IMG/VR virus record: IMGVR_UViG_3300046779_000879
Coordinates: 32,001-96,000 of that record
Strand: one strand, 5' to 3'
DNA length: 64,000 bases
DNA from: a virus
Shown here piece after piece: positions 12,686-64,000 of the stretch. A program made the position numbers and the translations under genes. A model generated the notes under the pieces. The model did not search any database and was not told the DNA's origin. It saw nothing but the letters and a program-made list of their open reading frames with translations. Positions within the stretch are counted from its first letter, which is position 1; each line of letters opens with the position of its first letter.

Positions 12686-13258
12686 TTATTTTTTAAATTT
12701 TAGTACAGTGTTAAAAGCAATTGAAATTCTATCTTCACTTGATTCATTAGAAATTACGCTATGTGGTAACCAAGAAGGAAACAACACTAATTGTCCTGTG
12801 CTTGGTTTAATCCGAATCACTGTAGAGTTGTACGAATTATATTCTTTAATCATGTTAGGAAAAATGACAAATGCAGCAACTGGATTTGGATTACTAAACT
12901 CCAACGCTGACGCATCTTTCCCTGCCTTAACATAATACACTCCTGACATTAACATCCCTGGACAATCATTATGTACATGATGTGCAACAATATATGGATT
13001 AGAATTTATATTCACCCATGCATTGTAAATTTTTTGTTCAGTGGCATCAGAAAATTGTAAATGGTCATGTAATGCATCAATTCTAGCACCAATCTCAGTG
13101 AACAATTCTTTTAATTCTGGTTCTGTTCCTTTGAAATAGGTAGTTTTATCTTTCTCTACACCTTCAGTCACTTTGTAGCAATAGTCAGCTATAGAATCAT
13201 TATCTATTTCCAATTCATCTGCTGCAAAGAAATTACTAAAAACATTTTCAATCTTCAT
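12686..13258 (-). CDS. 2OG-Fe(II) oxygenase (TIGR02466-like)
   Basis: AWVN, HVH, SGVYYV, LFPSWLPHSV, RISIAFN. Confidence 0.85.
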   Translation of the reverse strand: MKIENVFSNFFAADELEIDNDSIADYCYKVTEGVEKDKTTYFKGTEPELKELFTEIGARIDALHDHLQFSDATEQKIYNAWVNINSNPYIVAHHVHNDCPGMLMSGVYYVKAGKDASALEFSNPNPVAAFVIFPNMIKEYNSYNSTVIRIKPSTGQLVLFPSWLPHSVISNESSEDRISIAFNTVLKFKK

Positions 13259-38605: not shown

Positions 38606-39285
38606 AATTGTCTATCCAATTTTTTAATAATTGGGAATACCTCAGCAATAACTTTAGCACATTCAAGTGCAACTATCTGATGTTCTTTTTGTGTACCATT
38701 TGCACTGCGTAATTCAATAAAGTGAATCCAACTACGCAGTGTACCATTCATGTATAAACGACTAACTGTATTGCCTTCTGGTAGAATTGCTCTTGCTTGT
38801 TCTTTAGCAATTCCTTGACCAATCGCCCAGTCATACGTCTTTATTACTAGTGCTAGAATTTCTCTTTGCCTGTGACGCCACTCTTCAGCAATATTCTGTC
38901 CAGCAATGGTGGCTGGTAACTCTACGCTATTTTGACGATTGGTTTCGTCTTGGAGTCTGGCTTCCCTAAGGACAAATGATAAGTCCTTGGTGGGATCTGC
39001 GTAGCGTTGGCTGAATTCTTGAAAACTAAAAGAGCGGTGACGCAAGATTTGTCTTGCGATATCACGAGTAGTTTCTATTTCTAAACACGCACTGACCATT
39101 TCTAATGGTGACCAATGGCTGTGTTTGATAAGATACTTAATTAACTTCTCTGATGTCTCTGTGTTGAACTGGTTGGATGGATTTGATACACGAGCACAAA
39201 AAGCAACTAGCTCTTGTGCGTCAATCAAACCCTCATCATACATTTCATCTGATGGTTTAGAATAACTAATCAATTTCACTTTCAC
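38602..39285 (-). CDS. thyX: flavin-dependent thymidylate synthase
   Basis: HWSPLE, RQILRHRSFSFQEFSQRY. Confidence 0.97.
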   Translation of the reverse strand: MKVKLISYSKPSDEMYDEGLIDAQELVAFCARVSNPSNQFNTETSEKLIKYLIKHSHWSPLEMVSACLEIETTRDIARQILRHRSFSFQEFSQRYADPTKDLSFVLREARLQDETNRQNSVELPATIAGQNIAEEWRHRQREILALVIKTYDWAIGQGIAKEQARAILPEGNTVSRLYMNGTLRSWIHFIELRSANGTQKEHQIVALECAKVIAEVFPIIKKLDRQL

Positions 39286-50233: not shown

Positions 50234-51141
50234 ACGATTCTCCAACCATTACGATATATCATCTGTATGGCTCCATTGTTAATTTGAATTATGAAACCAC
50301 CAGCATCGTTATCAACAGTCCCAAGTACGGTAATAGGATTGATTTCTGCGTCGCCATCTTCATCTTTAATGATTAACATTCTACCAGAATTGGCAGATGA
50401 TGGTAGTGTTATTGTTACTGGACCAGCATAGTTCACACCAATGTAGTAGTCACTATCTTGTACTGTATATGTCGGTGTTGTTACTTCAGTTGTATTATAT
50501 ACAACTTCGTATGGATTGATTTCATCAAATACAAATTTCTTGCGAGCACCATCATACTTTAACCAGCGTCCATCTAATATGGTTTCTCTGGCGACATCGT
50601 CAAGGTATCTAAGATTAACTTCACCAGATCCTGGACCAGCATTGTTAATCTTACCGATCCATTGCTCAAGGAATTTAATCTTGTTATTGATTAGTTGAAA
50701 TTCTCTCTGCGAACTATCTTCTTTAGGAGTTTCAAACTGAGGCGACTTTAAGTATTTTTCAATAGAAGGTAAATCAGCAATGGCTGGATGTTGAGTCTCA
50801 GCTGGAACATCTCCAATCGGAGTTGGGAGTGGTTTAGTTTCAATAAGAACTTCCTCAACTAATTGAGGGTTTTCTTGAATGATTTCTTCTTTTCTATTCT
50901 TTAGAGATGCTAGTTCTGCAAATAAAGAATCAAAATCTGTTTTAACATTTTCTTTAATGTCAGATTCTAATTTTCTATTCTTCTGAACGACAGGATCTTT
51001 GTCCTTTAAATGTGACAATTGGGAGAATAATCCTCCCAAGTCTTCTTTAATATTTTCTTTTATCTCTCTATTCTTAACAGCAACAGGATCTTTTTGTTTA
51101 CCCTCTGCCATTAATTTGAGGAAATCATTTAATTCACTCAT
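50230..51141 (-). CDS. putative structural/tail-associated protein
   Basis: GPGSGEVNLRYLDDV; ITLPS..GRMLIIKDE. Confidence 0.65.
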   Translation of the reverse strand: MSELNDFLKLMAEGKQKDPVAVKNREIKENIKEDLGGLFSQLSHLKDKDPVVQKNRKLESDIKENVKTDFDSLFAELASLKNRKEEIIQENPQLVEEVLIETKPLPTPIGDVPAETQHPAIADLPSIEKYLKSPQFETPKEDSSQREFQLINNKIKFLEQWIGKINNAGPGSGEVNLRYLDDVARETILDGRWLKYDGARKKFVFDEINPYEVVYNTTEVTTPTYTVQDSDYYIGVNYAGPVTITLPSSANSGRMLIIKDEDGDAEINPITVLGTVDNDAGGFIIQINNGAIQMIYRNGWRIV

Positions 51142-52928
51142 TACTTCATCGCTTTTCGTAGGTCATTATACAACGCATCTTTGTGTTCTGGTTTCATCTG
51201 TGAAGATAATGCAGCATGAAATTCTTTCTTCTTACCAGTGGATGCTAACTCTCTTAATTTAGTTCCAGAGATACCAGCTACACCTTTAGCATTCTCGTCA
51301 CGTTGACCAGATGAATGCATGGTGATTGATTTAAAGTTAAAGTGCCCATGAGAAGACTCTTTACCATTATACTTCTTGAGCATCTCAACCATACTCTCAC
51401 GATCTGAACCGCCAACAAAGTGTAGATGTTTAACACCTTTGTTGTATAGATCAACTGCATGGTGAAGGATTGTTGGTTTACTCTTGTCTGCTACTTCAAT
51501 GTTAGTTCCAGGGAATGCATTCTTAGCATGTTTTAACTTCTGCTCTGGACTTAGTGGATTCTTACCATCTTTAGTATTGTGTGAATGAGAAAGAATCAAT
51601 GTATGGTCACCACCAACTTCTTTGGCAGTTTTCTTTAATTGATTAACAACTTGTTCATGTCCAGCAGTTGGAGGATTCATACGACCAAATGCGATGGTAT
51701 GATGTTTCTCGTCTGGCTCTTTGGCTGGAGCACGTGACTTCAATAGATTCTGACGAGCAAATTCTGCACGATTGACCAACTTGGTTGGCTCAGTTGTACC
51801 TTTGTGAGTATGATTGTAAACAAAACCTTCTGGCTTAGAAGCAACACCACCGATGGCATGTTCATAAGATCCTTCGTTGGATTCTAGAGTCTTAACCAAT
51901 TCATTCTTAGCATTGGCTAAGTGACCATGCATCTTTAAAAGATTTTCGTAATGTTCAGCATTCTTTTGAATGTGTTTAACATGACCACTCAACTCAGCAA
52001 GTTTAGCGTTTTGAGACTTCTCAGTTTTAAGTTTACCAATAATCTTTTCGTATTTACCAGCGATGTGTTTTTGTAAACCTTCAGCGGATGGAGTGCTACC
52101 ATCACGAACTGTTTGATTAATGTATGTGCTCAAGTGTCCAGCTTCACCAGAGTGTTCTGGGTGGATGGCATTATACATTTTAGTACCATGCTTTTCGTGA
52201 ATTGTTTTTGCTTTGGATAGTTCTGAAAGAACTTTGTCTTGAGATTCTTGAGGATACTTTGCACCACTGGCATCGTAAGAAGCAGTGTGGTGAAATACGT
52301 GATCGTGTTTACCAAACTCATCATCACTAACATTGCCAGTGGCACGCATACTGCTGAGAGTATTACCTTCGTATTTGGTATGAGTAACTACACCCAACTT
52401 GGCTTTGTGAATTGCTGCAGCTTTGTCGCCATGTGCAGTATAAGTGATAGTGTTTGGAGTGAAGGAAGCAGATCCGCTTTTACCTTTCTTGACATCAGGT
52501 TTAGTAAACATCACGTCACCCTGATAAACACCCTTCTTTGGAGCAACTTTTGGTAAATGCTCAAGACCAGCTTTTAGTTTTTCTACAAGACCTGGAGCAT
52601 GTCCATGATTCTTTTCTACATCTTCAGGTGTGTAGTTTAATTTTGGATTCTTATTGAACGCAGACTTGGAAGCAACAAAGAACTTACCAGTCTCTGGATG
52701 ATGACCATAAACAATAGATGGCGAACCATCGTATTTCATCGTCAACTTGTTGGATTGCTTACCTTGTTTGGTATGGAAGTGTGCACCATGGAGGGCATCG
52801 TATGCATGATGGAAACCTTCTGCTCCGTGGAACAGAGGTCTGTCTTCTGCATGAGTAATGTGCTTGAGTTTAGCACCCTCTTCCTCTACACCTTCGATTA
52901 AAAAATCATTGAATCCTAACACTTTCAT
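51141..52928 (-). CDS. DUF6267-like domain fused to a cytidylyltransferase-like domain
   Basis: KYDGSP..FFVASKSAFNK..EGFV..KLVNRAEF; FGRMNPPTAGH, VGGSDR, ISGTKLR. Confidence 0.8.
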   Translation of the reverse strand: MKVLGFNDFLIEGVEEEGAKLKHITHAEDRPLFHGAEGFHHAYDALHGAHFHTKQGKQSNKLTMKYDGSPSIVYGHHPETGKFFVASKSAFNKNPKLNYTPEDVEKNHGHAPGLVEKLKAGLEHLPKVAPKKGVYQGDVMFTKPDVKKGKSGSASFTPNTITYTAHGDKAAAIHKAKLGVVTHTKYEGNTLSSMRATGNVSDDEFGKHDHVFHHTASYDASGAKYPQESQDKVLSELSKAKTIHEKHGTKMYNAIHPEHSGEAGHLSTYINQTVRDGSTPSAEGLQKHIAGKYEKIIGKLKTEKSQNAKLAELSGHVKHIQKNAEHYENLLKMHGHLANAKNELVKTLESNEGSYEHAIGGVASKPEGFVYNHTHKGTTEPTKLVNRAEFARQNLLKSRAPAKEPDEKHHTIAFGRMNPPTAGHEQVVNQLKKTAKEVGGDHTLILSHSHNTKDGKNPLSPEQKLKHAKNAFPGTNIEVADKSKPTILHHAVDLYNKGVKHLHFVGGSDRESMVEMLKKYNGKESSHGHFNFKSITMHSSGQRDENAKGVAGISGTKLRELASTGKKKEFHAALSSQMKPEHKDALYNDLRKAMK

Positions 52929-52934
52929 ACCTTT

Positions 52935-52963
52935 ATTATACCCTAATTTGCAATATTTGTCAA
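52935..52963 (-). promoter_or_regulatory. consensus sigma70 promoter
   Basis: TTGACA-N17-TATAAT; ATG 6 nt downstream. Confidence 0.85.
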
Positions 52964-52989
52964 GCAATAACCCTACAGACTTGAGGGGT

Positions 52990-55045: not shown

Positions 55046-55762
55046 TTATTTAGGTCTTCTGGATGCCCTAATAGTTCTTTCGTATTTGCGTTCCCACTTA
55101 CCCACTTGCTGGATAATCTTTTGAATAGCGTGGTTATTACGATAATCGTAATTGAAAGCCTTGAGGATGTAATGGAAGGTATTTGAGTCTCGCTTCGTTT
55201 TGGATCTAGCGAGTAATTCTGACACTGGTACATTTGGTTTAAACATCTTATAGTCTAAAAATATACAATGTGCATATGCTTGAATCTCATCAAACTCTGA
55301 CAGATATCTTCTCTCTGCGTCTTTTTTGACTTGACCTATTTTTTTGTATGGAACAATGTAGTTGCTCCACTCATCATCACGTCTATCGTATTGCATAAAG
55401 TGGATTAATTCATGCATTTCTACTTGAATTAGTTTAAACTTAAACCTTTCCCATGAACGAGGGGTGAATGGGAAAGAGTCGTAGTGTTCAGTGTGAATTT
55501 GTAAAATACACTGTCGAGTTTCTGGATCGTACTCTCCACCTACAGCAACATGTGTCTCAAAGTACTTGGCTTTGGACTTTTCTTTGAACCAAACTACTTT
55601 AGTTCTCCACTTTCTAAAGTAGTTTGATAGACCTTTGGAATCGTTGCGATACTTGTCTAGGTCTACCCATATTTTCGCAGGGTTGAACTTAGCCCTAAAT
55701 GGACGCTCGTAAAAATTGAGCATTTCCATCCAGTCATAGTTTGATTGTTCTAGGAATTTCAT
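55046..55762 (-). CDS. zincin-like (HExxH) protein
   Basis: HELIH...EIQAYA. Confidence 0.65.
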   Translation of the reverse strand: MKFLEQSNYDWMEMLNFYERPFRAKFNPAKIWVDLDKYRNDSKGLSNYFRKWRTKVVWFKEKSKAKYFETHVAVGGEYDPETRQCILQIHTEHYDSFPFTPRSWERFKFKLIQVEMHELIHFMQYDRRDDEWSNYIVPYKKIGQVKKDAERRYLSEFDEIQAYAHCIFLDYKMFKPNVPVSELLARSKTKRDSNTFHYILKAFNYDYRNNHAIQKIIQQVGKWERKYERTIRASRRPK

Positions 55763-55782: not shown

Positions 55783-56388
55783 TTACCCTAATTGACCCTC
55801 TAAAAAGGTTAGAACTTTCCCCTGCTCCTCTAAGTTAGTGTTTGCAAACTCAGTAATATAGGACATCAATTCGAAATTAGATAATAGATTACTATATTTA
55901 GTCTCTCGCCCTCTTAGGAATTGTTCAGATTGGTCTGAACCACGATCAATATAACGCTGTTCTAGGATCTCTTTAGGTGCTTTGAGATAGACAATCTGTA
56001 GGTCGGTATTCGGTAGACCCATACAGAACTCTAGGAATGACTGATTAAAAACTCGATCTCCTTCGAAAAGAATGTTACAGTTATGCGTCTGGATCCACTC
56101 TTGTAGGTTCGGCTGGACTGCCATCGAAAGGCGATCTGTTCCAGCGAATGTTTCGCCATCTTCATACTTACCTAGAATGTAAAGATCTCGCTCTGTATTA
56201 TATGAAGCTGAAACTAACTTGGCAGGTTCAGTGGCAATCCACTGCTTGTTTTCCATAAACTTACGGAACAACGTAGTCTTGCCAGTTCCAGGTGAACCAC
56301 CAACTGCGATAATCTTTCTAGTCTTCATAGGTTTAGTAATTTTCTGAACAGTAATGGTATCTAAAACACCAAGTTTTTCATTAAGCAT
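55783..56388 (-). CDS. P-loop nucleotide/DNA kinase (5hmU-DNA-kinase-like)
   Basis: GGSPGTGKTT, LGKY, GTDRLS, EGDR; lies in the modification cluster. Confidence 0.75.
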   Translation of the reverse strand: MLNEKLGVLDTITVQKITKPMKTRKIIAVGGSPGTGKTTLFRKFMENKQWIATEPAKLVSASYNTERDLYILGKYEDGETFAGTDRLSMAVQPNLQEWIQTHNCNILFEGDRVFNQSFLEFCMGLPNTDLQIVYLKAPKEILEQRYIDRGSDQSEQFLRGRETKYSNLLSNFELMSYITEFANTNLEEQGKVLTFLEGQLG

Positions 56389-56767
56389 GTTTCGCTTCCT
56401 CAAGTAATTTCTTTAGCTCATCTTCTGTAAATACCCATACACGACCAATAAAGTGATGTACGTCTGCATCGACATCTCGTTTCTTAGTGAAAGATGTTTT
56501 TTTAATTATCTCTCTTGCAAGATTGCGAGACAAGTTTTCTTTAATCTCATCTGCATATGTTGGAACAGTATCTTTAAGTTTCATCAACTCAAACTCTGTA
56601 ACTTTATGCTCAACAGTCAGAAGATTTAACTCATGTCGTTCCATCAAATCTTCTACAGCAGTTGGTGGTACAGATATCGTTCCATAAGTTGTAGCAGAGG
56701 TTTTGATAGATCCAACAGTCAGTGAATCAATAGGTGTAGTAATAGGTGTAGTAATAGTAGTAATCAT
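56381..56767 (-). CDS. hypothetical protein
   Basis: 128-aa ORF inside the modification operon. Confidence 0.65.
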   Translation of the reverse strand: MITTITTPITTPIDSLTVGSIKTSATTYGTISVPPTAVEDLMERHELNLLTVEHKVTEFELMKLKDTVPTYADEIKENLSRNLAREIIKKTSFTKKRDVDADVHHFIGRVWVFTEDELKKLLEEAKHA

Positions 56768-57783
56768 GCGAACATCTCCAATCCATTTAATATAGGTTCT
56801 TCATCATCGAACAGCCACTCTAGATTTTCTAGACGACCTGTTCTTACAAAACTTGAAAATCTTTCTTTATCAATACCACGTTTGTGGTCTAAACGCAAGT
56901 CAATTGTTTCTTCTCTAGCTTGCCATAAAACATTCCAGTCAATACCATACCATCCATCGGACTCAGCTTTGATAATTTCTTCTGCTTGTCTATCAAGATA
57001 GTATCCAAGATACCTTCCGTGATTCTCTCTAAAGATTTTCTTAAAAGAACACAGACAGGTTTCCATGGTAAAGTAATCTATACTCGATGAGAGTTCTGGA
57101 AATCTCGCTTTCGTCTCTGCAAGAATCTCTTTGGCTTGTGACTCAAGATTTCCATACTCTGATGCAGTGAGTTTTCTATCCACACTGTCTTCTTGTCCGA
57201 TGGCATAAAGTAATCCATTACGATGAGAGCGAGAGCCATCATAATCGTCCAGCATGAGAGAAGTAGGATTGATCCGAACACCAGCGGTATGCTTAAGATG
57301 CTGAAGATAAAACCAAGTACTGTAACGACCAAACTTATGCAAGCCAGACTTAACGCTTTGCCACAAGTTATCAAAGTTCGCTTCCTCATTGTGTCCATAG
57401 TAACTTTCCAATCTCTCTCGTTGTGTTCTTCCACCAATAAATTGTTGATAAGATGCGAACATGGCTGGAAGATGTCCCTTGTTCCATTTTGTGTCAGTCT
57501 GATAACGCAGACGTTTGTAGTTGGTTGTGTTCCACTGAGTGGTTCTGTCCACTGTGGCAAGTTCAAAGTCAGGAAACTCATTCATTAATACCCATGCAGT
57601 TGGGAGTTGATATGTGTTACCATATAACCAGCATAACCAAAGTTTCTGCTCATCATTATGTTCATATCGTTTGTTGAGATAGTTCGTACACCAAACTGCT
57701 GGATCGCAGTCATCATACTTTAATGACCACACATACCAACGAATGAACGCTTCCCTACGATTTTGTTCTAAGCGATAATCCAT
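56764..57783 (-). CDS. amino acid:DNA transferase (aGPT-Pplase2 family, glycosylase fold)
   Basis: D.DP, WL..LYGNTY, FGRYSTWFYLQ, METCLCSFKK, RYLGYY.DR. Confidence 0.78.
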   Translation of the reverse strand: MDYRLEQNRREAFIRWYVWSLKYDDCDPAVWCTNYLNKRYEHNDEQKLWLCWLYGNTYQLPTAWVLMNEFPDFELATVDRTTQWNTTNYKRLRYQTDTKWNKGHLPAMFASYQQFIGGRTQRERLESYYGHNEEANFDNLWQSVKSGLHKFGRYSTWFYLQHLKHTAGVRINPTSLMLDDYDGSRSHRNGLLYAIGQEDSVDRKLTASEYGNLESQAKEILAETKARFPELSSSIDYFTMETCLCSFKKIFRENHGRYLGYYLDRQAEEIIKAESDGWYGIDWNVLWQAREETIDLRLDHKRGIDKERFSSFVRTGRLENLEWLFDDEEPILNGLEMFA

Positions 57784-58424
57784 TATACTAAAAATTCTTC
57801 AAGCGAGGGTTGTTCCATTAATGCATCACGCAACCATGCTTTACCGACAGCGTCAATTGCTGCTTGCGTTTTTGCTTTCTTTTTGTCTCCCCACTTATAT
57901 GTTTCTAATGCTTCCGAACGGAATTGATCTCTTGCCTTATAAGGTGGCAGAGCCGAGATTGGATTTGCGATAGCAGCAGCTCTAAATGCGAGTTGCTCAT
58001 TACGAGTGGGGAATAGAGTTTGGTCAGAGCGGAGACTACCTGTGGGGTCAACTGCCCAGAAGATGAGACCATTTCTGTAATGCCAAGTGACTGAAGATGG
58101 CGTACAAGATATTTTAAGTCTTTTAGATTTTCGCTCTTCAACTGCATACCTAATCCAAGATTCCCAACATTTGCTGGCATATCCATTTCCCTCTTTCCCT
58201 TCCAACGTGACTATTTCATACAAATTGGCATATCCATCACGATTGTGTGTGGCAAAAATTAAAGAAACAACTTCTCCATTAACTTCATACGCAAGCGGAG
58301 GTGCTTTGTCATAGTTATGAAAGCGATACCACAATGAATGTGCAGCCGATAAGAACTTGGTGTTCTTACCAGCTGGACTAGTTTTAATTAACTCTTCAAC
58401 TCTCGTTGAATTAACAAAGTTCAT
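57783..58424 (-). CDS. GNAT-like acetyltransferase
   Basis: LYEIVT..EGNGYAS (motif A-like), S..WHYRNG. Confidence 0.6.
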   Translation of the reverse strand: MNFVNSTRVEELIKTSPAGKNTKFLSAAHSLWYRFHNYDKAPPLAYEVNGEVVSLIFATHNRDGYANLYEIVTLEGKEGNGYASKCWESWIRYAVEERKSKRLKISCTPSSVTWHYRNGLIFWAVDPTGSLRSDQTLFPTRNEQLAFRAAAIANPISALPPYKARDQFRSEALETYKWGDKKKAKTQAAIDAVGKAWLRDALMEQPSLEEFLV

Positions 58425-59103
58425 ATTGTAAGTCCACCGCATCTTCAATGACTTCTTTTTCAATAGTCATTGCGAGTTGGTCATCAAATGTAATGTAATG
58501 ATTCATCAAAGTATGAATCGGCAATCCTGGAACTTCTGCTCGTTTTGGAACATCAGCAGTAGAAGTAATTATACAACCATTTGAGATATTTGTCAAGTAT
58601 AATGGACGCTTACCATTGCGATAGAATCTAATAACTTTATCAACATGCAACTCAATTACTGCAAGACTAGAATCTTTCCAACGAACCAATGGACTAATAC
58701 AATCTTCTGCCGTATGCAAAATCAATTCAGTATCGTTTTTAGTTTCGCAATCATATCCATAGAGTTCTTTCCATTTCTCAGGCAACTCTTGAGTAATAAC
58801 TCCATTGTGGACTACCGAAAGATTCTCATTGGCGATGGGTTGATTGAATTCTAAGTCACTGGTACTATAGCGACAGTGACCAATTAGATAAAGACTACCA
58901 TCTTCATTGACATAACTCGGAAAGTTAAATGGAAATTGATCGGCAGGTACTGGTCGCTTCTCAGTGATAATCTTTCCATGTTTAACATAGGAGATTCCAG
59001 TGGCATGCATCCCTCGAATCTTAGACTCAAGGAACACACGATGAAGCATTAAGAAATCCTCGGCACGAGGTTCTTTAATAATTGCTCCAATGACTGAACA
59101 CAT
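58411..59103 (-). CDS. class II (Ntn) glutamine amidotransferase, stand-alone
   Basis: Cys2, RG.HATG, GHCRYST, NQP, HNGVI, NDTE, RPL. Confidence 0.9.
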   Translation of the reverse strand: MCSVIGAIIKEPRAEDFLMLHRVFLESKIRGMHATGISYVKHGKIITEKRPVPADQFPFNFPSYVNEDGSLYLIGHCRYSTSDLEFNQPIANENLSVVHNGVITQELPEKWKELYGYDCETKNDTELILHTAEDCISPLVRWKDSSLAVIELHVDKVIRFYRNGKRPLYLTNISNGCIITSTADVPKRAEVPGLPIHTLMNHYITFDDQLAMTIEKEVIEDAVDLQYELC

Positions 59104-60428
59104 TAGAAGAATCCTTCAAGTGAGTTTGACTTTTGCGATTCTGGATGATACTTCATCAATGTATCGTGTCCAAGTTTACTCTCAAGATATTCATACCACT
59201 CATCAGATTCCCACATTGAAGGGCTGACACCATTCCAAAGATGTCGCTGAGAACCATCTTCATATTTTTGATCTGGGTGTTCTTTGTTAAGTCTGCGTTG
59301 TTCAACAAAGTCATAACGGCAGTCTTCGTATTGTTTAGAACCCAACTCAAGCATTTTCTCACGGAAGTAAACAACCAATGAGATTCGTTCTGCTTCTTCA
59401 TCAAGCAATTCAATCTGAGTATTGCCATGCATAACTTCATGGTTGTTAATTAGTAGCAAATCTCCAGGTCTTGGATTGACAGCAACACGATACTCTGGTG
59501 CAACAAGATAACATCCTTTGTAGTTACCATTGTTTGTTAGAGTCAACAGATTTGATAGACCAGAAGTTAAGTCACCTGCATCGTAGTGACATGCAGTTCT
59601 GAAAGATTTATTAACTGTAATAGTAGTAAATGGAGTTCCAGGAACTAAGAATGCAGGATCTAGTTTCTTTGCTGCTTCCATTTGATTATTGTATCTCCAT
59701 GGCAACAAGTCTTTGAAACCTTGCGCAAGTTGCTGGAGGAATGGATATGACATGGCAAACTTTACTGGCTCACGAGCAGTATAAGATGTTGCACGACCAT
59801 AAGGAATGCGAGGATAACGATCGAACCATCCAGCAATACCAGACATAACACCATTGGCATAGGTAGTTGCACAAACATATGCTTTCTCTACTCGTCTGGC
59901 TTCAGCAATCATTTCAGATGCATCTAATTTACGAACTTTCTCGACCCATTCATTGAAGACAAAATTGTCTTTCTTAACTGCTTGAATACCCCAAACATTA
60001 TTTCGTGTAGATGGTTTGTCAGTCTTACCTTGATGTTTGGCTTTAATGGCTTCAATTGGATCTCCATCCAAAGATGCTTTTGGGTTTAAGAAGTAGTCAA
60101 TGATTTCTGATTCATATTCAGTGACCCATTCACGATTACCCAATTTCTCTGCTCTTGGACCTGCAGCCATACCTCTGTTTTGAGTTTCAGTTGCAGCCTC
60201 ACGCAAACCAATGTATGCTTGATCTTGTTGTTCCTTTGTAAAATAATTCTTACGGAACTTCAGAACAATCCTTTCTTCAGAGTATGTCAACTCTGGATGT
60301 CCAGGAATTTCTGGCATATAAACATCACAGTCCTCTTCAATGAGGAAATCATAATGAGACTCATCAGGAAATTGTCCCAACATATGAGTCATATCATGTT
60401 TCTGTTTTGCTACGATTACCTTAGTCAT
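59103..60428 (-). CDS. TET/JBP-family 2OG-Fe(II) dioxygenase
   Basis: FTTITVN..RTACHYDAGD...HGNT...RISLVVYFRE. Confidence 0.85.
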   Translation of the reverse strand: MTKVIVAKQKHDMTHMLGQFPDESHYDFLIEEDCDVYMPEIPGHPELTYSEERIVLKFRKNYFTKEQQDQAYIGLREAATETQNRGMAAGPRAEKLGNREWVTEYESEIIDYFLNPKASLDGDPIEAIKAKHQGKTDKPSTRNNVWGIQAVKKDNFVFNEWVEKVRKLDASEMIAEARRVEKAYVCATTYANGVMSGIAGWFDRYPRIPYGRATSYTAREPVKFAMSYPFLQQLAQGFKDLLPWRYNNQMEAAKKLDPAFLVPGTPFTTITVNKSFRTACHYDAGDLTSGLSNLLTLTNNGNYKGCYLVAPEYRVAVNPRPGDLLLINNHEVMHGNTQIELLDEEAERISLVVYFREKMLELGSKQYEDCRYDFVEQRRLNKEHPDQKYEDGSQRHLWNGVSPSMWESDEWYEYLESKLGHDTLMKYHPESQKSNSLEGFF

Positions 60429-60436
60429 ATTCTCTC

Positions 60437-61837
60437 CTAAAACTTAAATCCATTAAAACTCTCTGTACTATGTATGCGTTTGCCAAAAGCAGATTTATCA
60501 AACATTGGACCATCATCTTTATCTTGACCAGCATCAGACAAACCAGTCTGTGCAGACGCTTCAACATCATAGAGTTTCATCTTTGCTCTATCAATCCCAA
60601 TTACGAATCTCTTGTAGAAACTTGGATCGTTATAACGATTCTTTAATTGCTTAACGATAATCTGATTTAACTCCTCAAGTTCTTCGTTGCTGACCAAAGC
60701 AAACATAAAGTCAGCAGTTGCAGGCAGACCAAAAGATTCAGATGTATCTTCAAGTCCTGGATCGCTGTTAGTGAAACCACCACGAGTAGTTTGAGTGGCA
60801 GATACAATTGGAACATTATACTCAACTGCTAGACCACGCAACTCTTCAGCAATGCTCTTAATATATGTATAAGAGTTAATACTTCCACCTTGTTTCATTC
60901 TTTGACTCGCACAAATATTCAAATAGTCAATAAAAATAATATCAGGTCTAAACTCTTTCTTCAATTTCAATTCTTCCAACAAAGCACGGAAGTGACCAGC
61001 ATGAGCACCAGCAGTTGGATACTCTTTGATGATAAACTTACCTGTACTCTTTTTGGCGATCTTATCAATTCTAGTTTCGTAAATATCTCTATCAATAACC
61101 TTCAACTCGTCCATGGTCAGATTTAACAGATTCGCATCAACACGTTCAGCGATTCGTTCTTCTGCCATTTCCATAGTTATGTATAAGGCATTTTTACCCT
61201 GCGTCAAAACTCCTGCAGCCATGTGACACATGAACAATGATTTGCCAACACCAGTACCAGCCAATGCGATGTTTAGGGTTTTCTTTGAAAGTCCACCCTT
61301 GGTGATTTTATTGAACATGTCAAGGTCGAAAGGAATCTTCTCTTCAACCCTGTGATAAAAATCAAACCTCGCATGATGGTCATCGATGTAGTCATGACCA
61401 ATGTGATTATCAAAAGAAACAGCCAGTGCGTCAGATAGAATAGAAGGAATCGCATCTTTAGAATTTACCTTATCACCACCATCAATAATTTTAATCGAAC
61501 CTAAGATGGCATTATAAACGGCACGATCCTTACAAAACTTCTCAGTGTTCTCAAGCATCCAGTCTTCGTTGACTGGTTCATGAGACATTGTGTTGATATA
61601 CTCAGTTAGTTCAGATAATTCTTTATCTGTAAGATCCTTACGATTCGAAACTTCAATCGTAAGAATTTCTTTTGTGGCTGGTTTGTTGTACTTGCTGAAG
61701 AAGTCTACAAGTTCGTTTGCTAGGATTGCTTCTTTTTTATCCGAGAAGTATTCTCGTTTGATAAATGGGATTACCTTACGGCAGTACTGCTCATCATAAA
61801 TCAGATTGCTCAGAATTTTTTGTTCTATTCTCATCAA
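60437..61837 (-). CDS. 41: replicative helicase (gp41)
   Basis: AGTGVGKS, ITMEMAEE, IDYLNI, SATQTTR, SESFGLP, QLKNRY. Confidence 0.97.
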   Translation of the reverse strand: MMRIEQKILSNLIYDEQYCRKVIPFIKREYFSDKKEAILANELVDFFSKYNKPATKEILTIEVSNRKDLTDKELSELTEYINTMSHEPVNEDWMLENTEKFCKDRAVYNAILGSIKIIDGGDKVNSKDAIPSILSDALAVSFDNHIGHDYIDDHHARFDFYHRVEEKIPFDLDMFNKITKGGLSKKTLNIALAGTGVGKSLFMCHMAAGVLTQGKNALYITMEMAEERIAERVDANLLNLTMDELKVIDRDIYETRIDKIAKKSTGKFIIKEYPTAGAHAGHFRALLEELKLKKEFRPDIIFIDYLNICASQRMKQGGSINSYTYIKSIAEELRGLAVEYNVPIVSATQTTRGGFTNSDPGLEDTSESFGLPATADFMFALVSNEELEELNQIIVKQLKNRYNDPSFYKRFVIGIDRAKMKLYDVEASAQTGLSDAGQDKDDGPMFDKSAFGKRIHSTESFNGFKF

Positions 61838-62126
61838 CTCCGCCTGTGTATGTCAAATTATTTCGTTCAATACCTTCATAGATTAACTCTTGTAGAATAT
61901 CTCCAATATATTGCTCGAATGATGCTTTATCGGTTAAATCTTTATCATCGTCATCAATGATATCATATTCGAAACGAAGATGAATATTATCAGTTGTTTC
62001 ATTTTCATCGAATTGAACTTTACCGTAAGTATAGATTATACCCTCAAAAGCACCTTCTGTCAACTTTATTGCTTGGAGTCCATCTTGTTTAGAATCCAAC
62101 ACAACGTAACGTGGGTTACTCATCAA
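61794..62126 (-). CDS. hypothetical protein between uvsX and 41 (gp40 position)
   Basis: synteny only. Confidence 0.6.
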   Translation of the reverse strand: MMSNPRYVVLDSKQDGLQAIKLTEGAFEGIIYTYGKVQFDENETTDNIHLRFEYDIIDDDDKDLTDKASFEQYIGDILQELIYEGIERNNLTYTGGVDENRTKNSEQSDL

Positions 62127-63250: not shown

Positions 63251-64000
63251 TTATCCAAAGAAATCTTCCAATGAACTTTCTTCTTGTGTCTTCCAACCCA
63301 GTGGTTCAATAACAATTTGTAGAGCATCCAAGAATACTTTCTCAAACTGTTTGTCATAATCTATGTATGATTCCAATCCAAACTCCTTTGGAAGAACTTG
63401 AGGGAATGCAATAACATCTTCTTGAAGTGGGTTTGGTGTCTTAACATAAACGAATTTAATCTTGTCACCATCACGAATAGGTTGATACCTTTTATCAATA
63501 CCGAATCGTTTGCAGTGATGATTGAATAATAAAGCACCACGAACATGAATCGGTGTTCCTTTGGCATACACTGGCGAACCAGCATACTGTTTGATACCAT
63601 TGACACCACGAGGGAATGCAATCTCTTCAACAGGAAGTTTCTCGAACTCTTTCTTAAAGTCCATAACATACTTATGCAGAACTTTTTGGTCACCGAGCAG
63701 AATGACATCAATGGAGTCTTTTAGTTTGTCACGAATCACTGCAGGTGTAGATGACTTGACCATTTCAAGACCCATCACCTTGACTTTAGGTTTTGCAAAC
63801 TGGACACCCTCAGAGTTATGCACATTGATAACATATCGCTTCTTAGCAGTCCAGATGGCTTTGTCGGCTAGAACTTCTCGCTTCATTACCATCTTTTGCG
63901 AATACGCATTCATGTACTCGGCTAGTTCTTGATAACCAGTATCAATAAATGGCTGAAAAATATCTTCACATATCTTGTCCATGAATTTGATTTTCTCTTC
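63251..64000 (-). CDS. 43: family B DNA polymerase gp43, C-terminal part
   Basis: KKRY, MGLEMVKSSTP, clamp-binding tail SLEDFF; gene runs off the window edge. Confidence 0.97.
   Translation of the reverse strand, partial: EEKIKFMDKICEDIFQPFIDTGYQELAEYMNAYSQKMVMKREVLADKAIWTAKKRYVINVHNSEGVQFAKPKVKVMGLEMVKSSTPAVIRDKLKDSIDVILLGDQKVLHKYVMDFKKEFEKLPVEEIAFPRGVNGIKQYAGSPVYAKGTPIHVRGALLFNHHCKRFGIDKRYQPIRDGDKIKFVYVKTPNPLQEDVIAFPQVLPKEFGLESYIDYDKQFEKVFLDALQIVIEPLGWKTQEESSLEDFFG

Follow-up and report, generated by a model that had tools for sequence, protein, structure and literature searches.

We analyzed a 64,000-nucleotide stretch of DNA (the window) from an uncultured, T4-like freshwater phage whose 163.6-kb genome is complete (CheckV 100%). 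The window carries a six-gene cassette in the order TET/JBP dioxygenase, glutamine amidotransferase (GATase), GNAT-fold acyltransferase, amino acid:DNA transferase (ADDT, or AADT), 128-aa ORF and P-loop kinase. It lies on the minus strand, as do all features given here with coordinates, with a DnaB/gp41-type replicative helicase directly upstream (60437..61837; Pfam DnaB_C 2.3e-19; phrog_19 4.9e-128). The cassette genes are translationally coupled: only 8 nt separate the helicase and TET genes, base 59103 belongs both to the TET stop and to the start of GATase, base 57783 is common to GNAT and ADDT, and ADDT overlaps the 128-aa ORF by 4 nt. All 80 of the related IMG/VR loci examined share this gene order (TET identity 77–98%). 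An earlier note, made from the letters alone, had described these six tightly coupled genes beside the helicase; all six were borne out at the positions given below. HMM searches, which it had proposed as a check, matched the TET/JBP protein, GATase, ADDT and P-loop kinase in Pfam, with the GNAT just above its cut-off.

The first gene (59103..60428) encodes a 441-aa TET/JBP-family 5-methylpyrimidine dioxygenase (Pfam Tet_JBP 1.6e-26, aa 229–357; phrog_24024 5.9e-157), in which alignment to human TET2 places the catalytic residues at H281-x-D283, H334 and R348. Phages DLP6, Cr30 and C48C1 encode full-length homologues with 41–49% identity; the AF2 model (pLDDT 45) was too poor for use. We propose that this protein is a candidate thymine-to-5-hydroxymethyluracil (5hmU) oxidase working on DNA. 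Phage TET/JBPs without a neighbouring C5-methyltransferase (C5-MTase) act as T-dioxygenases in vivo and in vitro (PMC13229309), and TETs of clade C1 are linked to GATases, kinases and AADTs (O'Toole 2026, PMC13229309). Profile searches of the complete 163.6-kb genome found no PF00145 C5-MTase; PF00303 ThyA or a ThyA-type hydroxymethylase was likewise not found in the complete genome. Ordinary dTMP is made by the phage through a flavin-dependent thymidylate synthase, ThyX (window 38632..39222; PF02511 4.2e-45), the sole copy in the genome. The earlier note had reported ordinary ThyX without a hydroxymethylase or C5-MTase for the window and suggested searching the rest of the genome; its observation now extends to the whole. 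One finding counts against our reading: no ParB_N match was found in the complete genome, and for a subset of ParB-less clade C1 TETs activity was not detectable in earlier tests (O'Toole 2026, PMC13229309).

At the other end of the cassette lies the P-loop kinase (55783..56403; Pfam Ploopntkinase3 1.2e-6), 206 aa long from TTG 56403, with an alternative start at ATG 56388. It matches phrog_800, "terminase small subunit", a label also found on the records of the 5hmU DNA kinases (5-HMUDKs) PaMx11 gp49 and M6 gp54, and gives a weak BLASTP match to PaMx11 gp49 (24%, 2.8e-6 in a small database). We therefore propose it as a candidate 5-hmU DNA kinase. The product of such kinases, which the earlier note had called pyrophosphorylated in line with an older description, is described as the monophosphate 5-phosphomethyl-dU (PMC8989533, PMC13458397). 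The 128-aa ORF (56381..56767), whose N-terminus is rich in Thr and Pro and whose C-terminus is helical, had no match in Pfam and PHROG searches and is of unassigned function. Close relatives have it (52–90% identity) and the distant cassettes L090 and L094 do not; it is fast-evolving and restricted to the window lineage. A conserved 238-aa protein with a HELIH (HExxH) motif is encoded 20 nt after the kinase (55046..55762) and follows it in every relative long enough for judging. Its H117, E118 and H121 are invariant, searches of Pfam, PHROG, PDB and Atlas returned no family, and its membership of the cassette is uncertain.

The ADDT (aGPT-Pplase2; 56764..57783; 339 aa; Pfam ADDT PF18724 1.6e-23) is proposed to swap the phosphate of 5-phosphomethyl-U for an amine nucleophile. 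Its residues D25, Y54, Y58 and E241-T242-x-x-C245 match D24, Y47, Y51, E243, T244 and C247 of PaMx11 gp46. In the PaMx11 gp46 and YuA structures, the carboxylate of glycine is held by lysines K150/K159 and by the Lys after the catalytic Cys (PMC11472151; PMC13458397). The glycine-binding positions differ here, with W146 replaced by Tyr, K150 by Phe and the Lys following the catalytic Cys by Ser relative to PaMx11 gp46, and throughout the GATase-linked ADDT clade the carboxylate-binding lysines have become Phe and Ser/Ala. This pocket comparison relies on alignments of 14–27% identity, the range separating our ADDT from the characterised ADDTs; identity to other GATase-linked ADDTs is 41–66%. 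ADDTs can take amines that are not amino acids (PMC13458397).

The GATase (58411..59103) is a stand-alone class II (Ntn) glutamine amidotransferase of 230 aa (Pfam GATase_6 4.1e-10, and GATase_7) with the N-terminus MCSVIG; Cys2, R78, N100-G101 and D124 do not vary across 40 diverse homologues. Its family comprises 344 clusters (50% identity) at E≤1e-10, nearly all stand-alone and about 230 aa long. Among solved structures it lies nearest to PurF glutaminase domains (E 1e-10); at E≤1e-3 the search found PurF and GlmS domains and no EgtC-like or other amidohydrolase. We propose that the GATase is a candidate glutaminase subunit supplying ammonia to ADDT. A natural GATase-ADDT fusion occurs in P0250, where genes for a HMUDK and a ThyA-like protein come next. 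The eight other neighbourhoods that are long enough for judging (L088, L089, L090, L094, L097, L098, L099 and the window lineage) all have ADDT joined to the GATase as a fusion, directly beside it or no more than a few genes away, and this linkage holds across phages with differing 5hmU sources.

We then modelled the GATase-transferase complex, as the earlier note had recommended. The predicted complex reached an ipSAE of 0.90 in three of three runs, against 0.00 for the best of three controls; these values express model confidence and were computed from custom alignments. At least 96% of contacts were common to the runs, partner pLDDT was at least 90, and the mark is one that 58 of 80 solved complexes reach, as do 2 of 110 mismatched pairs. 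On the GATase side, the predicted interface surrounds the Cys1 face (residues 1, 28–33, 79–81, 101–107, 164–167 and 181–184); on the ADDT side it includes the clade-invariant R39, N43, E45, N68, E69, P71, D72, G280 and D282. Direct amination with glutamine-derived ammonia, as the earlier note had envisaged, thus gains computational support from the fusion, the constant linkage, the predicted complex and the lost carboxylate-binding lysines.

The GNAT gene (57783..58424) encodes 213 aa from ATG 58424, which is likely the start rather than TTG 58463, where the ORF opens. Its Pfam Acetyltransf_1 score is marginal (21.0 bits vs a cut-off of 20.7); the call is firmed up by BLAST homology to GNATs of sister cassettes L089 and L094, which have solid Pfam matches, and by an AF2 model (pLDDT 74), for which a PDB search gave 226 matches at E≤1e-3. 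Among the PDB matches listed, all were GNAT acyltransferases, SpeG came top and the best were polyamine N-acetyltransferases. We propose that this protein is a candidate N-acetylase of a DNA-borne amine, comparable to PaMx11 gp48, a GNAT that acetylates 5-NmdU (PMC8989533). All four sister cassettes with a GNAT also have an Amidoligase_2-like protein, whereas no amidoligase was found in our complete phage genome. The end product is uncertain because GNAT travels with amidoligase in those cassettes, and the substrate need not be plain 5-aminomethyl-U. A perfect sigma-70 consensus (TTGACA-17-TATAAT; 58568..58596) lies within the GATase coding sequence, ahead of GNAT, and is a possible internal early promoter.

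Three cassette proteins end in similar C-terminal tails: SLEGFF on TET (59106..59123), kept in 79 of 79 related TETs and of a type also found on the TETs of L090, DLP6 and C48C1; SLEEFLV on GNAT (57786..57806; 63 of 63 relatives); and GLEMFA on ADDT (56767..56784; 48 of 48 relatives), which reads GLEEFMI in L097. The family-B DNA polymerase, whose 3' part is in the window (63251..64000, the gene extending past it; PF00136 4.7e-27), ends in SSLEDFFG. Tails of the SLExF[FLA] type occur on four of about 213 genome ORFs, namely ADDT, GNAT, TET and DNA polymerase, against a chance expectation of 0.25, the pattern having been defined after three of the tails had been seen, so that the polymerase match alone was predicted. 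The tails of T4 gp43 (ASLDFLFG) and T4 gp55 are of the same type, and a gp45-type clamp gene is present in the genome. Because TET, GNAT and ADDT share their tails with the phage polymerase, the sequences suggest that all three may be tethered to the sliding clamp.

Together, these observations point to a post-replicative thymidine hypermodification cassette, and we lean slightly towards the full route TET, kinase, ADDT/GATase and GNAT over its being wrong at some step. TET/JBP would hydroxylate thymine in phage DNA to 5hmU, a step suggested by its family membership, by the genome lacking a 5mC/5hmU source and by published phage T-dioxygenases. The P-loop kinase, being homologous to 5-HMUDKs, would convert 5hmU to 5-phosphomethyl-U. 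At the Cys/metal site of ADDT the phosphate would be expelled by NH3 from the bound Ntn-glutaminase, not by a free amino acid, making GATase and ADDT a two-subunit amidotransferase that yields 5-aminomethyl-U, much as in PurF glutamine-derived NH3 displaces pyrophosphate; the fusion, constant gene linkage, predicted complex and altered pocket argue for this step. GNAT would finally cap the primary amine, most simply with acetyl, so that 5-acetylaminomethyl-U is our best guess for the final base; this is the weakest step. A PaMx11-type FAD lyase, M6-type PLP decarboxylase and M6-type radical-SAM isomerase were all absent from the complete genome. The gene calls and the overall logic put forward in the earlier note, with GATase and GNAT as tailoring enzymes, hold, while its chemistry is kept as a proposal.

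We consider it rather unlikely that ADDT instead adds a carbon-containing nucleophile, for instance a host polyamine or an amino acid such as glutamine or glutamate, and that the side chain so attached to the DNA is then the substrate of the Ntn protein. That protein would either cut a gamma-glutamyl amide in the manner of EgtC-type Ntn amidohydrolases, exposing 5-aminomethyl-U, or amidate a carboxylate, with GNAT acetylating the amine left over. Every characterised ADDT does employ a free amino acid or diamine (PMC8989533, PMC13458397), but the two lysines that hold the donor carboxylate in the solved enzymes are lost in the GATase-linked clade. GATase R78, N100-G101 and D124 would fit a gamma-glutamyl amide equally well, yet the nearest solved relatives donate ammonia. 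This reading is favoured by other stand-alone phage class II GATases, which sit in a setting of gamma-glutamyl amide chemistry with amidoligases and gamma-glutamyl cyclotransferases, by the amidoligase of the sister cassettes and by the polyamine acetyltransferases heading the GNAT matches; against it, GATase adjoins or is fused to ADDT in the minimal cassettes L088, L098 and L099, and L088 and L098 lack both amidoligase and GNAT. Fusion and complex would fit sequential action as well as channelling, but the predicted complex buries the Cys1 face against ADDT, which would leave little access for a substrate carried on DNA.

Two further readings appear very improbable. TET could oxidise host-made 5-methylcytosine, with kinase and ADDT then processing 5hmC. 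In its favour, 5mC is the substrate of the phage TET dioxygenases in clades A and B, the possibility of a kinase acting on 5hmC made by TET has been raised (Burke 2021, PMC8256090), and characterised phage T-dioxygenases oxidise 5mC too in vitro (PMC13229309). However, the complete genome has no C5-MTase; few sites would carry host methylation; kinase and ADDT homologues have been characterised on 5hmU only (PMC8989533); the GATase-ADDT module is also found in two 5hmU settings, beside genes for ThyA-like hydroxymethylases and in an SPO1-like context; and O'Toole 2026 (PMC13229309) counts among the T-dioxygenases those TETs that have no C5-MT beside them and whose genes are linked with those for AADT, kinase and GATase. 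We give equally little credence to the genes being mere neighbours in a replication-gene block, with GATase and GNAT serving nucleotide or host metabolism, for example as a PurF-like auxiliary or a polyamine acetylase. T4-like genomes do carry many auxiliary metabolic genes, and the GNAT resembles SpeG. The JGI label for the GATase is "glutamine phosphoribosylpyrophosphate amidotransferase", but the protein has no PRTase or other acceptor domain, and in phages of unrelated types its family goes together with ADDT, once as a fusion. The translational coupling, the complex that passes its controls and the polymerase-type tail common to GNAT, ADDT and TET also speak against chance proximity.

This cassette type is not new: TET_JBP replacing dUMP hydroxymethylase beside kinase, AADT, glutamine amidotransferase and amidoligase genes has been published (Lee 2021, PMC8989533, section 21; O'Toole 2026, PMC13229309). 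Six of the nine neighbourhoods surveyed encode an amidoligase-like protein, in P0154 as a fusion with the GATase, so the GATase could mainly serve the amidoligase, and the window lineage is possibly a reduced form. What is new here is the support for direct amination from the GATase-ADDT fusion, linkage, predicted complex and lost lysines. Most likely, the cassette converts thymine in replicated DNA to an (acetyl)aminomethyl-type base, with TET, GNAT and ADDT probably docking on the gp45-type sliding clamp and acting just behind the fork.

The hypermodification cassette and its helicase lie on the minus strand from 61837 down to 55783, in a window taken from positions 32001-96000 of an uncultured phage's contig (163,642 bp, complete by CheckV). 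Gene calls, Pfam and PHROG gave the order DnaB/gp41-type helicase, 441-aa Tet_JBP dioxygenase (TET; 59103-60428), 230-aa class II glutamine amidotransferase (GATase; 58411-59103), GNAT (57783-58424), 339-aa amino acid:DNA transferase (ADDT, PF18724; 56764-57783), a 128-aa ORF to which Pfam and PHROG assigned no family, and a Ploopntkinase3-type kinase (55783-56403). The starts and stops of these genes overlap or touch, and the genes are therefore translationally coupled. The surroundings are T4-like, with UvsX and a family-B DNA polymerase upstream of the cassette and a gp45-type clamp gene elsewhere in the genome, near genome positions 108047-108346. The six-gene cassette described in the earlier note was borne out, with every gene in place after the helicase and the catalytic residues present (Pfam, alignments and, for the GNAT, an AF2 model). 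A blastn search with the cassette found no nucleotide match among 50,697 phage records. Two perfect sigma-70 consensus promoters (TTGACA-17-TATAAT) occur on the minus strand, at 58568-58596 within the GATase gene ahead of the GNAT and at 62035-62063 ahead of the helicase; judged by their match to consensus, they may be early promoters, in which case the cassette would be transcribed as two units. Farther downstream, at a distance of three genes from the cassette, 51141-52967 (minus strand) encodes a 608-aa protein with a DUF6267 match (1.1e-92) and a weak cytidylyltransferase-like C-terminal part.

We found a close relative of the TET encoded in 320 IMG/VR contigs. Among the best 80 of these (TET identity 77-98%), all 80 shared the order helicase, TET, GATase, GNAT, ADDT, 128-aa ORF, kinase and 238-aa ORF, counting every gene that fits on each contig. 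More than 1,700 close relatives of the GATase were also found, and freshwater metagenomes hold the family in large numbers. We take the cassette to be real, and it is both abundant and strongly conserved; it is a variant form of a published kind, TET-initiated thymidine hypermodification.

Some close relatives carry an insertion. In one form, TET and GATase are separated by a 203-aa 2OG-FeII_Oxy_5 oxygenase (L010:8029-8640), of which a 31%-identical paralogue lies at 12692-13252 of our window; in another, an extra 242-aa ORF that belongs to no known family lies between GNAT and ADDT (L027:5332-6060). The 238-aa ORF (55046-55762, minus strand) begins 20 nt after the kinase and recurs in all relatives whose contigs reach far enough. 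It carries an invariant HELIH (HExxH) metalloprotease-like motif, and searches of Pfam, PHROGs and the Atlas, and of the PDB with a profile, gave it no family. A SprT-like role in clearing covalent ADDT-DNA intermediates would be pure speculation.

The gene content bears on the source of the modified base. The whole genome encodes a single ThyX, and searches of the complete genome found no C5-cytosine methyltransferase domain and no ThyA-type (hydroxy)methylase or dUMP hydroxymethylase; the phage therefore makes ordinary dTMP. The window had earlier been described in these terms, and the absences extend to the remainder of the genome. With no dUMP hydroxymethylase and a TET/JBP gene heading the cassette, TET acting on thymine in DNA would be the only visible source of a 5-hydroxymethylpyrimidine. 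The iron ligands of the TET (H281-x-D283 and H334) and its 2OG-binding R348 are invariant and align with human TET2 (Tet_JBP, 92.9 bits). Cultured T4-like phages (DLP6, Cr30 and C48C1) encode full-length homologues under the erroneous label 'SNF2 DNA repair protein'. Phage TET/JBP relatives (5mYOX) oxidise thymine after replication, in vivo as well as in vitro (O'Toole 2026, PMC13229309).

Cassettes of this kind have been described. In metavirome contigs, a TET_JBP gene stands beside kinase and AADT (that is, ADDT) genes where a dUMP hydroxymethylase would otherwise be (Lee 2021, NAR, PMC8989533 section 21, Fig. 2 sequences 22-25), and associated 'amidoligase and glutaminotransferase' genes were noted there with no function given (Lee 2021, PMC8989533). 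GATases, P-loop kinases and AADTs are 'consistently linked' with the clade C1 subclass of TETs (O'Toole 2026, PMC13229309). Our cassette matches the clade C1 setting, having no neighbouring C5-MT and a GATase, kinase and AADT linked to its TET. It resembles the published clusters (PMC8989533; PMC13229309, PNAS) in having a TET in place of the hydroxymethylase and, in its sister cassettes, an amidoligase, whereas its TET is the 441-aa form common to the T4-like phages DLP6, Cr30 and C48C1.

The published GATase-linked subclass also differs in being described as ParB-dependent; no ParB was found in the present genome. Some clade C1 TETs that lack ParB had shown no activity in earlier tests (O'Toole 2026, PMC13229309). 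The whole genome gave no ParB_N match at E<=10, a threshold that a very divergent ParB may escape, and the neighbouring unknown ORFs contained no ParB-type GxxRxxA (arginine-patch) motif. The roughly 70 TET residues past the last conserved Cys are a C-terminal extension of the kind ascribed to ParB-dependent forms (PMC13229309). A ParB-like domain fused within the TET N-terminus was considered and is unsupported, because a language-model search with residues 1-215 gave weak Tet_JBP-like leads alone (0.83). The AF2 model of the TET, built from a 12-sequence alignment, had a pLDDT of 45 and was unusable, the N-terminal 228 residues included.

We then considered the GATase. The protein starts MCSVIG, so that Cys comes first after Met removal, and Cys2, Arg78, Asn100-Gly101 and Asp124 are invariant in 40 homologues, down to 32% identity. 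Its nearest solved relatives are PurF glutaminase domains, and the family profile finds both PurF and GlmS. No acceptor (synthase) domain is present in cis in the protein. An unclustered homologue search was filled by relatives of 96-100% identity that offered no distant context, and we therefore searched 1.84 billion representative proteins clustered at 50%. This search gave a family of 344 clusters at E<=1e-10, nearly all stand-alone proteins of ~230 aa. Among the family members listed were two fusions: P0250, a GATase-ADDT fusion with an HMUDK kinase gene and a ThyA-like gene after it, and P0154, a GATase-Amidoligase_2 fusion after which come a GNAT and an ADDT. Among cultured phages, the matches in tf, PaP3-like, Vibrio 1.262.O and Kovu were rejected as close analogues, with ~25% identity and no ADDT nearby; those GATases belong to an amidoligase / gamma-glutamyl cyclotransferase system.

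The neighbourhoods of nine distant family members were inspected, of which eight were informative; the contig of one, L092, ends one gene past the GATase. An ADDT is fused to the GATase, adjoins it or lies a few genes away in every contig long enough (L088, L089, L090, L094, L097, L098 and L099). The link holds across 5hmU sources: a TET in L090 and L097 and a hydroxymethylase in L088, with L098 in an SPO1-like setting. An amidoligase-like protein of ~290 aa lies beside the GATase in six neighbourhoods; Amidoligase_2-like proteins occur at L090:7129-8004, L094:7737-8600, L097:7684-8574 and L099:7726-8676 and, in fused form, at L089:418-1989. The GNAT is confined to amidoligase-bearing cassettes except in the phage lineage studied here, which has a GNAT without an amidoligase. 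Since the ADDT is linked to the GATase in all of these contigs and the amidoligase and GNAT are variable, the invariant core is GATase, ADDT and kinase.

The ADDT (PF18724, 1.6e-23) retains the catalytic framework of the solved enzymes. In MAFFT alignments with the PaMx11 and YuA proteins, at the 14-27% identity that separates it from solved ADDTs, its E241-T242-x-x-C245, D25, Y54 and Y58 align with E243, T244, C247, D24, Y47 and Y51 of PaMx11 gp46. A single-sequence phmmer search of the PDB did not reach the PaMx11 and YuA structures. In those structures, the carboxylate of the glycine donor is held by two lysines (PMC11472151; PMC13458397). Both glycine enzymes retain these lysines (K150/K159 and the Lys beside the catalytic Cys), which are Phe and Ser/Ala in every GATase-linked ADDT. 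The glycine-specific positions (gp46 Trp146/Lys150; YuA K159/K248) read Tyr, Phe and Ser in the phage ADDT. Donor choice is set by two pocket residues, and ADDTs can accept plain amines (PMC13458397). Two genes from the ADDT, the kinase (Ploopntkinase3, 1.2e-6) matches phrog_800, a label shared by PaMx11 gp49 and M6 gp54, and shows a weak BLASTP link to gp49.

Modelling of a complex between the GATase and the transferase, suggested earlier from the sequence, predicted a complex, with an ipSAE of 0.90 in three of three runs, whereas the best of three controls scored 0.00. At least 96% of contacts were common to the runs, and partner pLDDT was at least 90. Of 80 solved complexes, 58 reach this ipSAE mark, as do 2 of 110 mismatched pairs, counts that hold only roughly because the alignments were self-supplied. 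We know of no solved GATase-ADDT complex, so the score is probably not a remembered structure. To the predicted interface the GATase contributes the face around residue 1 and the invariant R30-H33, Y79-T81, G101, Q105, N163-P167 and S181, and the ADDT contributes the clade-invariant R39, N43, E45, N68-D72 and G280-D282. These ADDT residues flank, in sequence, the Tyr54/Tyr58 and Glu268 elements, which correspond to the gp46 pocket beside the C5 substituent (PMC11472151).

In PurF, glutamine-derived ammonia displaces pyrophosphate. Like other class II amidotransferases, PurF, the best solved relative, shares the N-terminal Cys and the Arg/Asn-Gly/Asp glutamine site with the phage protein, and the proposed chemistry would be alike, with NH3 displacing a phosphate ester leaving group. 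The P0250 fusion places the glutaminase on the N-terminal side of the acceptor domain, an arrangement shared with PurF, GlmS and AsnB. PurF differs in that the phage glutaminase is a separate 230-aa protein, whose proposed acceptor is a DNA-base transferase working on a polymer; we know of no precedent for an amidotransferase acceptor acting on a DNA polymer. The Ntn glutaminase and the ADDT would together form a two-subunit 'glutamine:DNA amidotransferase' that places the glutamine nitrogen directly on 5-phosphomethyl-uracil in DNA. Drawn from sequence comparison and modelling, the fusion, the genomic linkage, the predicted complex, the kinship to PurF and the altered pocket favour such an enzyme, converting 5-phosphomethyl-U to 5-aminomethyl-U.

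An alternative is that the Ntn protein instead trims or amidates an amino acid already bound to DNA. It draws on the sister cassettes, where the amidoligase is an alternative GATase partner; the GATase-amidoligase fusion indicates that in other phages the glutaminase may work with a second partner, and the amidoligase-bearing sisters probably build a longer, amide-linked side chain. Amidoligase_2 is absent from the complete genome studied here. We regard this alternative as unlikely. The pathway put forward in the earlier note, in which thymine is oxidised, activated, aminated with glutamine nitrogen and N-acetylated, stands as the best current reading, and we lean slightly towards it. Its novelty in gene content is smaller than was claimed, as cassettes of this kind have been published. 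Novelty is still real for the glutamine-dependent step and for possible clamp tethering: full-text searches, including PMC8989533 and PMC13229309, found no function for the GATase and no product base given, and neither the GATase-ADDT fusion, the predicted complex nor the polymerase-like tails were found described in Lee 2021 or O'Toole 2026.

Direct amination would reach the same kind of base by another route than that of PaMx11. The PaMx11 5-AcNmdU pathway (gp46, the FAD lyase gp47, gp48 and gp49; PMC8989533, PMC11472151) likewise has a kinase, an AADT and a GNAT in one operon, conserves the AADT Cys, the Glu-Thr metal site and the Asp/Tyr pocket, and makes the kind of base that is likely the end product here, 5-aminomethyl-U that is then N-acetylated. 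In PaMx11, however, a dUMP hydroxymethylase supplies 5hmU, whereas here TET would do so on DNA, and gp46 shares 14% identity with the phage ADDT, in which the Trp and Lys that bind glycine are missing. Where PaMx11 relies on glycine plus a lyase, the present phage has an Ntn glutaminase: tblastn (E<=1) found no homologue of the gp47 FAD lyase in the genome, nor were homologues of the M6 PLP decarboxylase and radical-SAM isomerase found in it.

The last step would fall to the GNAT, which would acetylate the new amine to give 5-acetylaminomethyl-U. The Pfam match of this protein is marginal (21.0 bits), and it is homologous to the GNATs of sister cassettes. Its AF2 model (pLDDT 74) gave 226 PDB matches, all those listed being GNAT acyltransferases, with spermidine N-acetyltransferases on top. 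PaMx11 gp48 acetylates 5-NmdU (PMC8989533); the masses given there are 257 u for 5-NmdU and 299 u for 5-AcNmdU. The GNAT had no detectable sequence match to gp48, and the model points to a common fold with no orthology implied. Because a GNAT after an amine-forming step recalls gp48, 5-acetylaminomethyl-U is, by analogy, the simplest predicted product. Acetylation is the weakest step, since the GNATs of sister cassettes accompany an amidoligase and gp48 is unmatched in sequence.

Three cassette enzymes share a C-terminal end with the replicative polymerase. The pattern [STGNA]-L-[EDQ]-x-hydrophobic-hydrophobic ends only four of ~213 ORFs in the genome, against a chance expectation of 0.25; as it was written with three of the tails already seen, the polymerase match is the sole true prediction. 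On the minus strand these are ADDT NGLEMFA (56767-56784), GNAT PSLEEFLV (57786-57806), TET NSLEGFF (59106-59123) and family-B polymerase SSLEDFFG (63254-63274). The tails are conserved in related contigs (TET 79/79, GNAT 63/63, ADDT 48/48, polymerase 31/31), and TETs of 41-52% identity (those in L090, DLP6 and C48C1) retain theirs. Among the cassettes compared, none outside T4-like phages had such tails. Helicases of relatives (the gene at 60437-61837, minus strand, in our window) end ESFEGFKF and kinases FLEGNFKM, loosely similar acidic-aromatic ends that fall off the polymerase pattern.

The form S/G-L-E-x-F-F/L/A common to the phage TET, GNAT, ADDT and polymerase recalls T4 gp43, which ends ASLDFLFG, and T4 gp55, which has SLDFLY near its end. 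The tails of T4 gp43 and gp55 (and gp33) are said to bind gp45, a finding attributed to Berdis in 1996, to Shamoo and Steitz in 1999 and to the work of Geiduschek. This likeness suggests that the TET, GNAT and ADDT ends are candidate clamp-binding tails of polymerase type. To our knowledge, no DNA-modifying enzyme has been shown to use a clamp-binding tail. A proposal that the T4 alpha-GT/glucosyltransferase is tethered to gp45 has lately been contradicted (bioRxiv 10.64898/2025.12.06.692756). If the tails bind the clamp, the oxidase, transferase and acetylase would ride behind the replication fork. That a glutaminase-ADDT amidotransferase provides a second, shorter route to 5-aminomethyl-U and 5-acetylaminomethyl-U, and that oxidase, transferase and acetylase are hitched to the clamp as a line travelling with the fork, is a compound picture that we hold to be quite improbable as a whole.

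The Caulobacter phage Cr30 illustrates how such cassettes vary. Within ~9 kb at the same genomic place (L002, the Cr30 genome, 8001-16894), it encodes a TET, an ADDT, a TAGT-like protein, an inositol-1-phosphate synthase and a kinase. Its TET (46% over the full length), ADDT (28%) and kinase (39%) are related to those of the present phage; the core is common and the tailoring enzymes vary. Cr30 has neither GATase nor GNAT, and a Gln follows its ADDT catalytic Cys, whereas the GATase-linked clade has Ser/Ala. Being cultured, Cr30 may lend itself to study as a model of another TET-initiated hypermodification.

Thymidine hypermodifications shield phage DNA from restriction and CRISPR and are a source of enzymes for DNA labelling and sequencing chemistry. 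Glutamine amidotransferases recur in TET-initiated cassettes in published surveys, where they were left unexplained. Should ammonia pass from the glutaminase to the transferase, no earlier amidotransferase would have had a base in polymeric DNA as its acceptor, and the pair would be a two-protein means of installing a reactive primary amine on DNA with thymine as the start. How a post-replicative pathway can keep pace with replication is a question left by O'Toole 2026, to which the shared polymerase-type tails suggest an answer. Given the abundance of the family (320 TET contigs and more than 1,700 GATase relatives), the product base may be common in nature, and it may affect the sequencing and detection of such phages.
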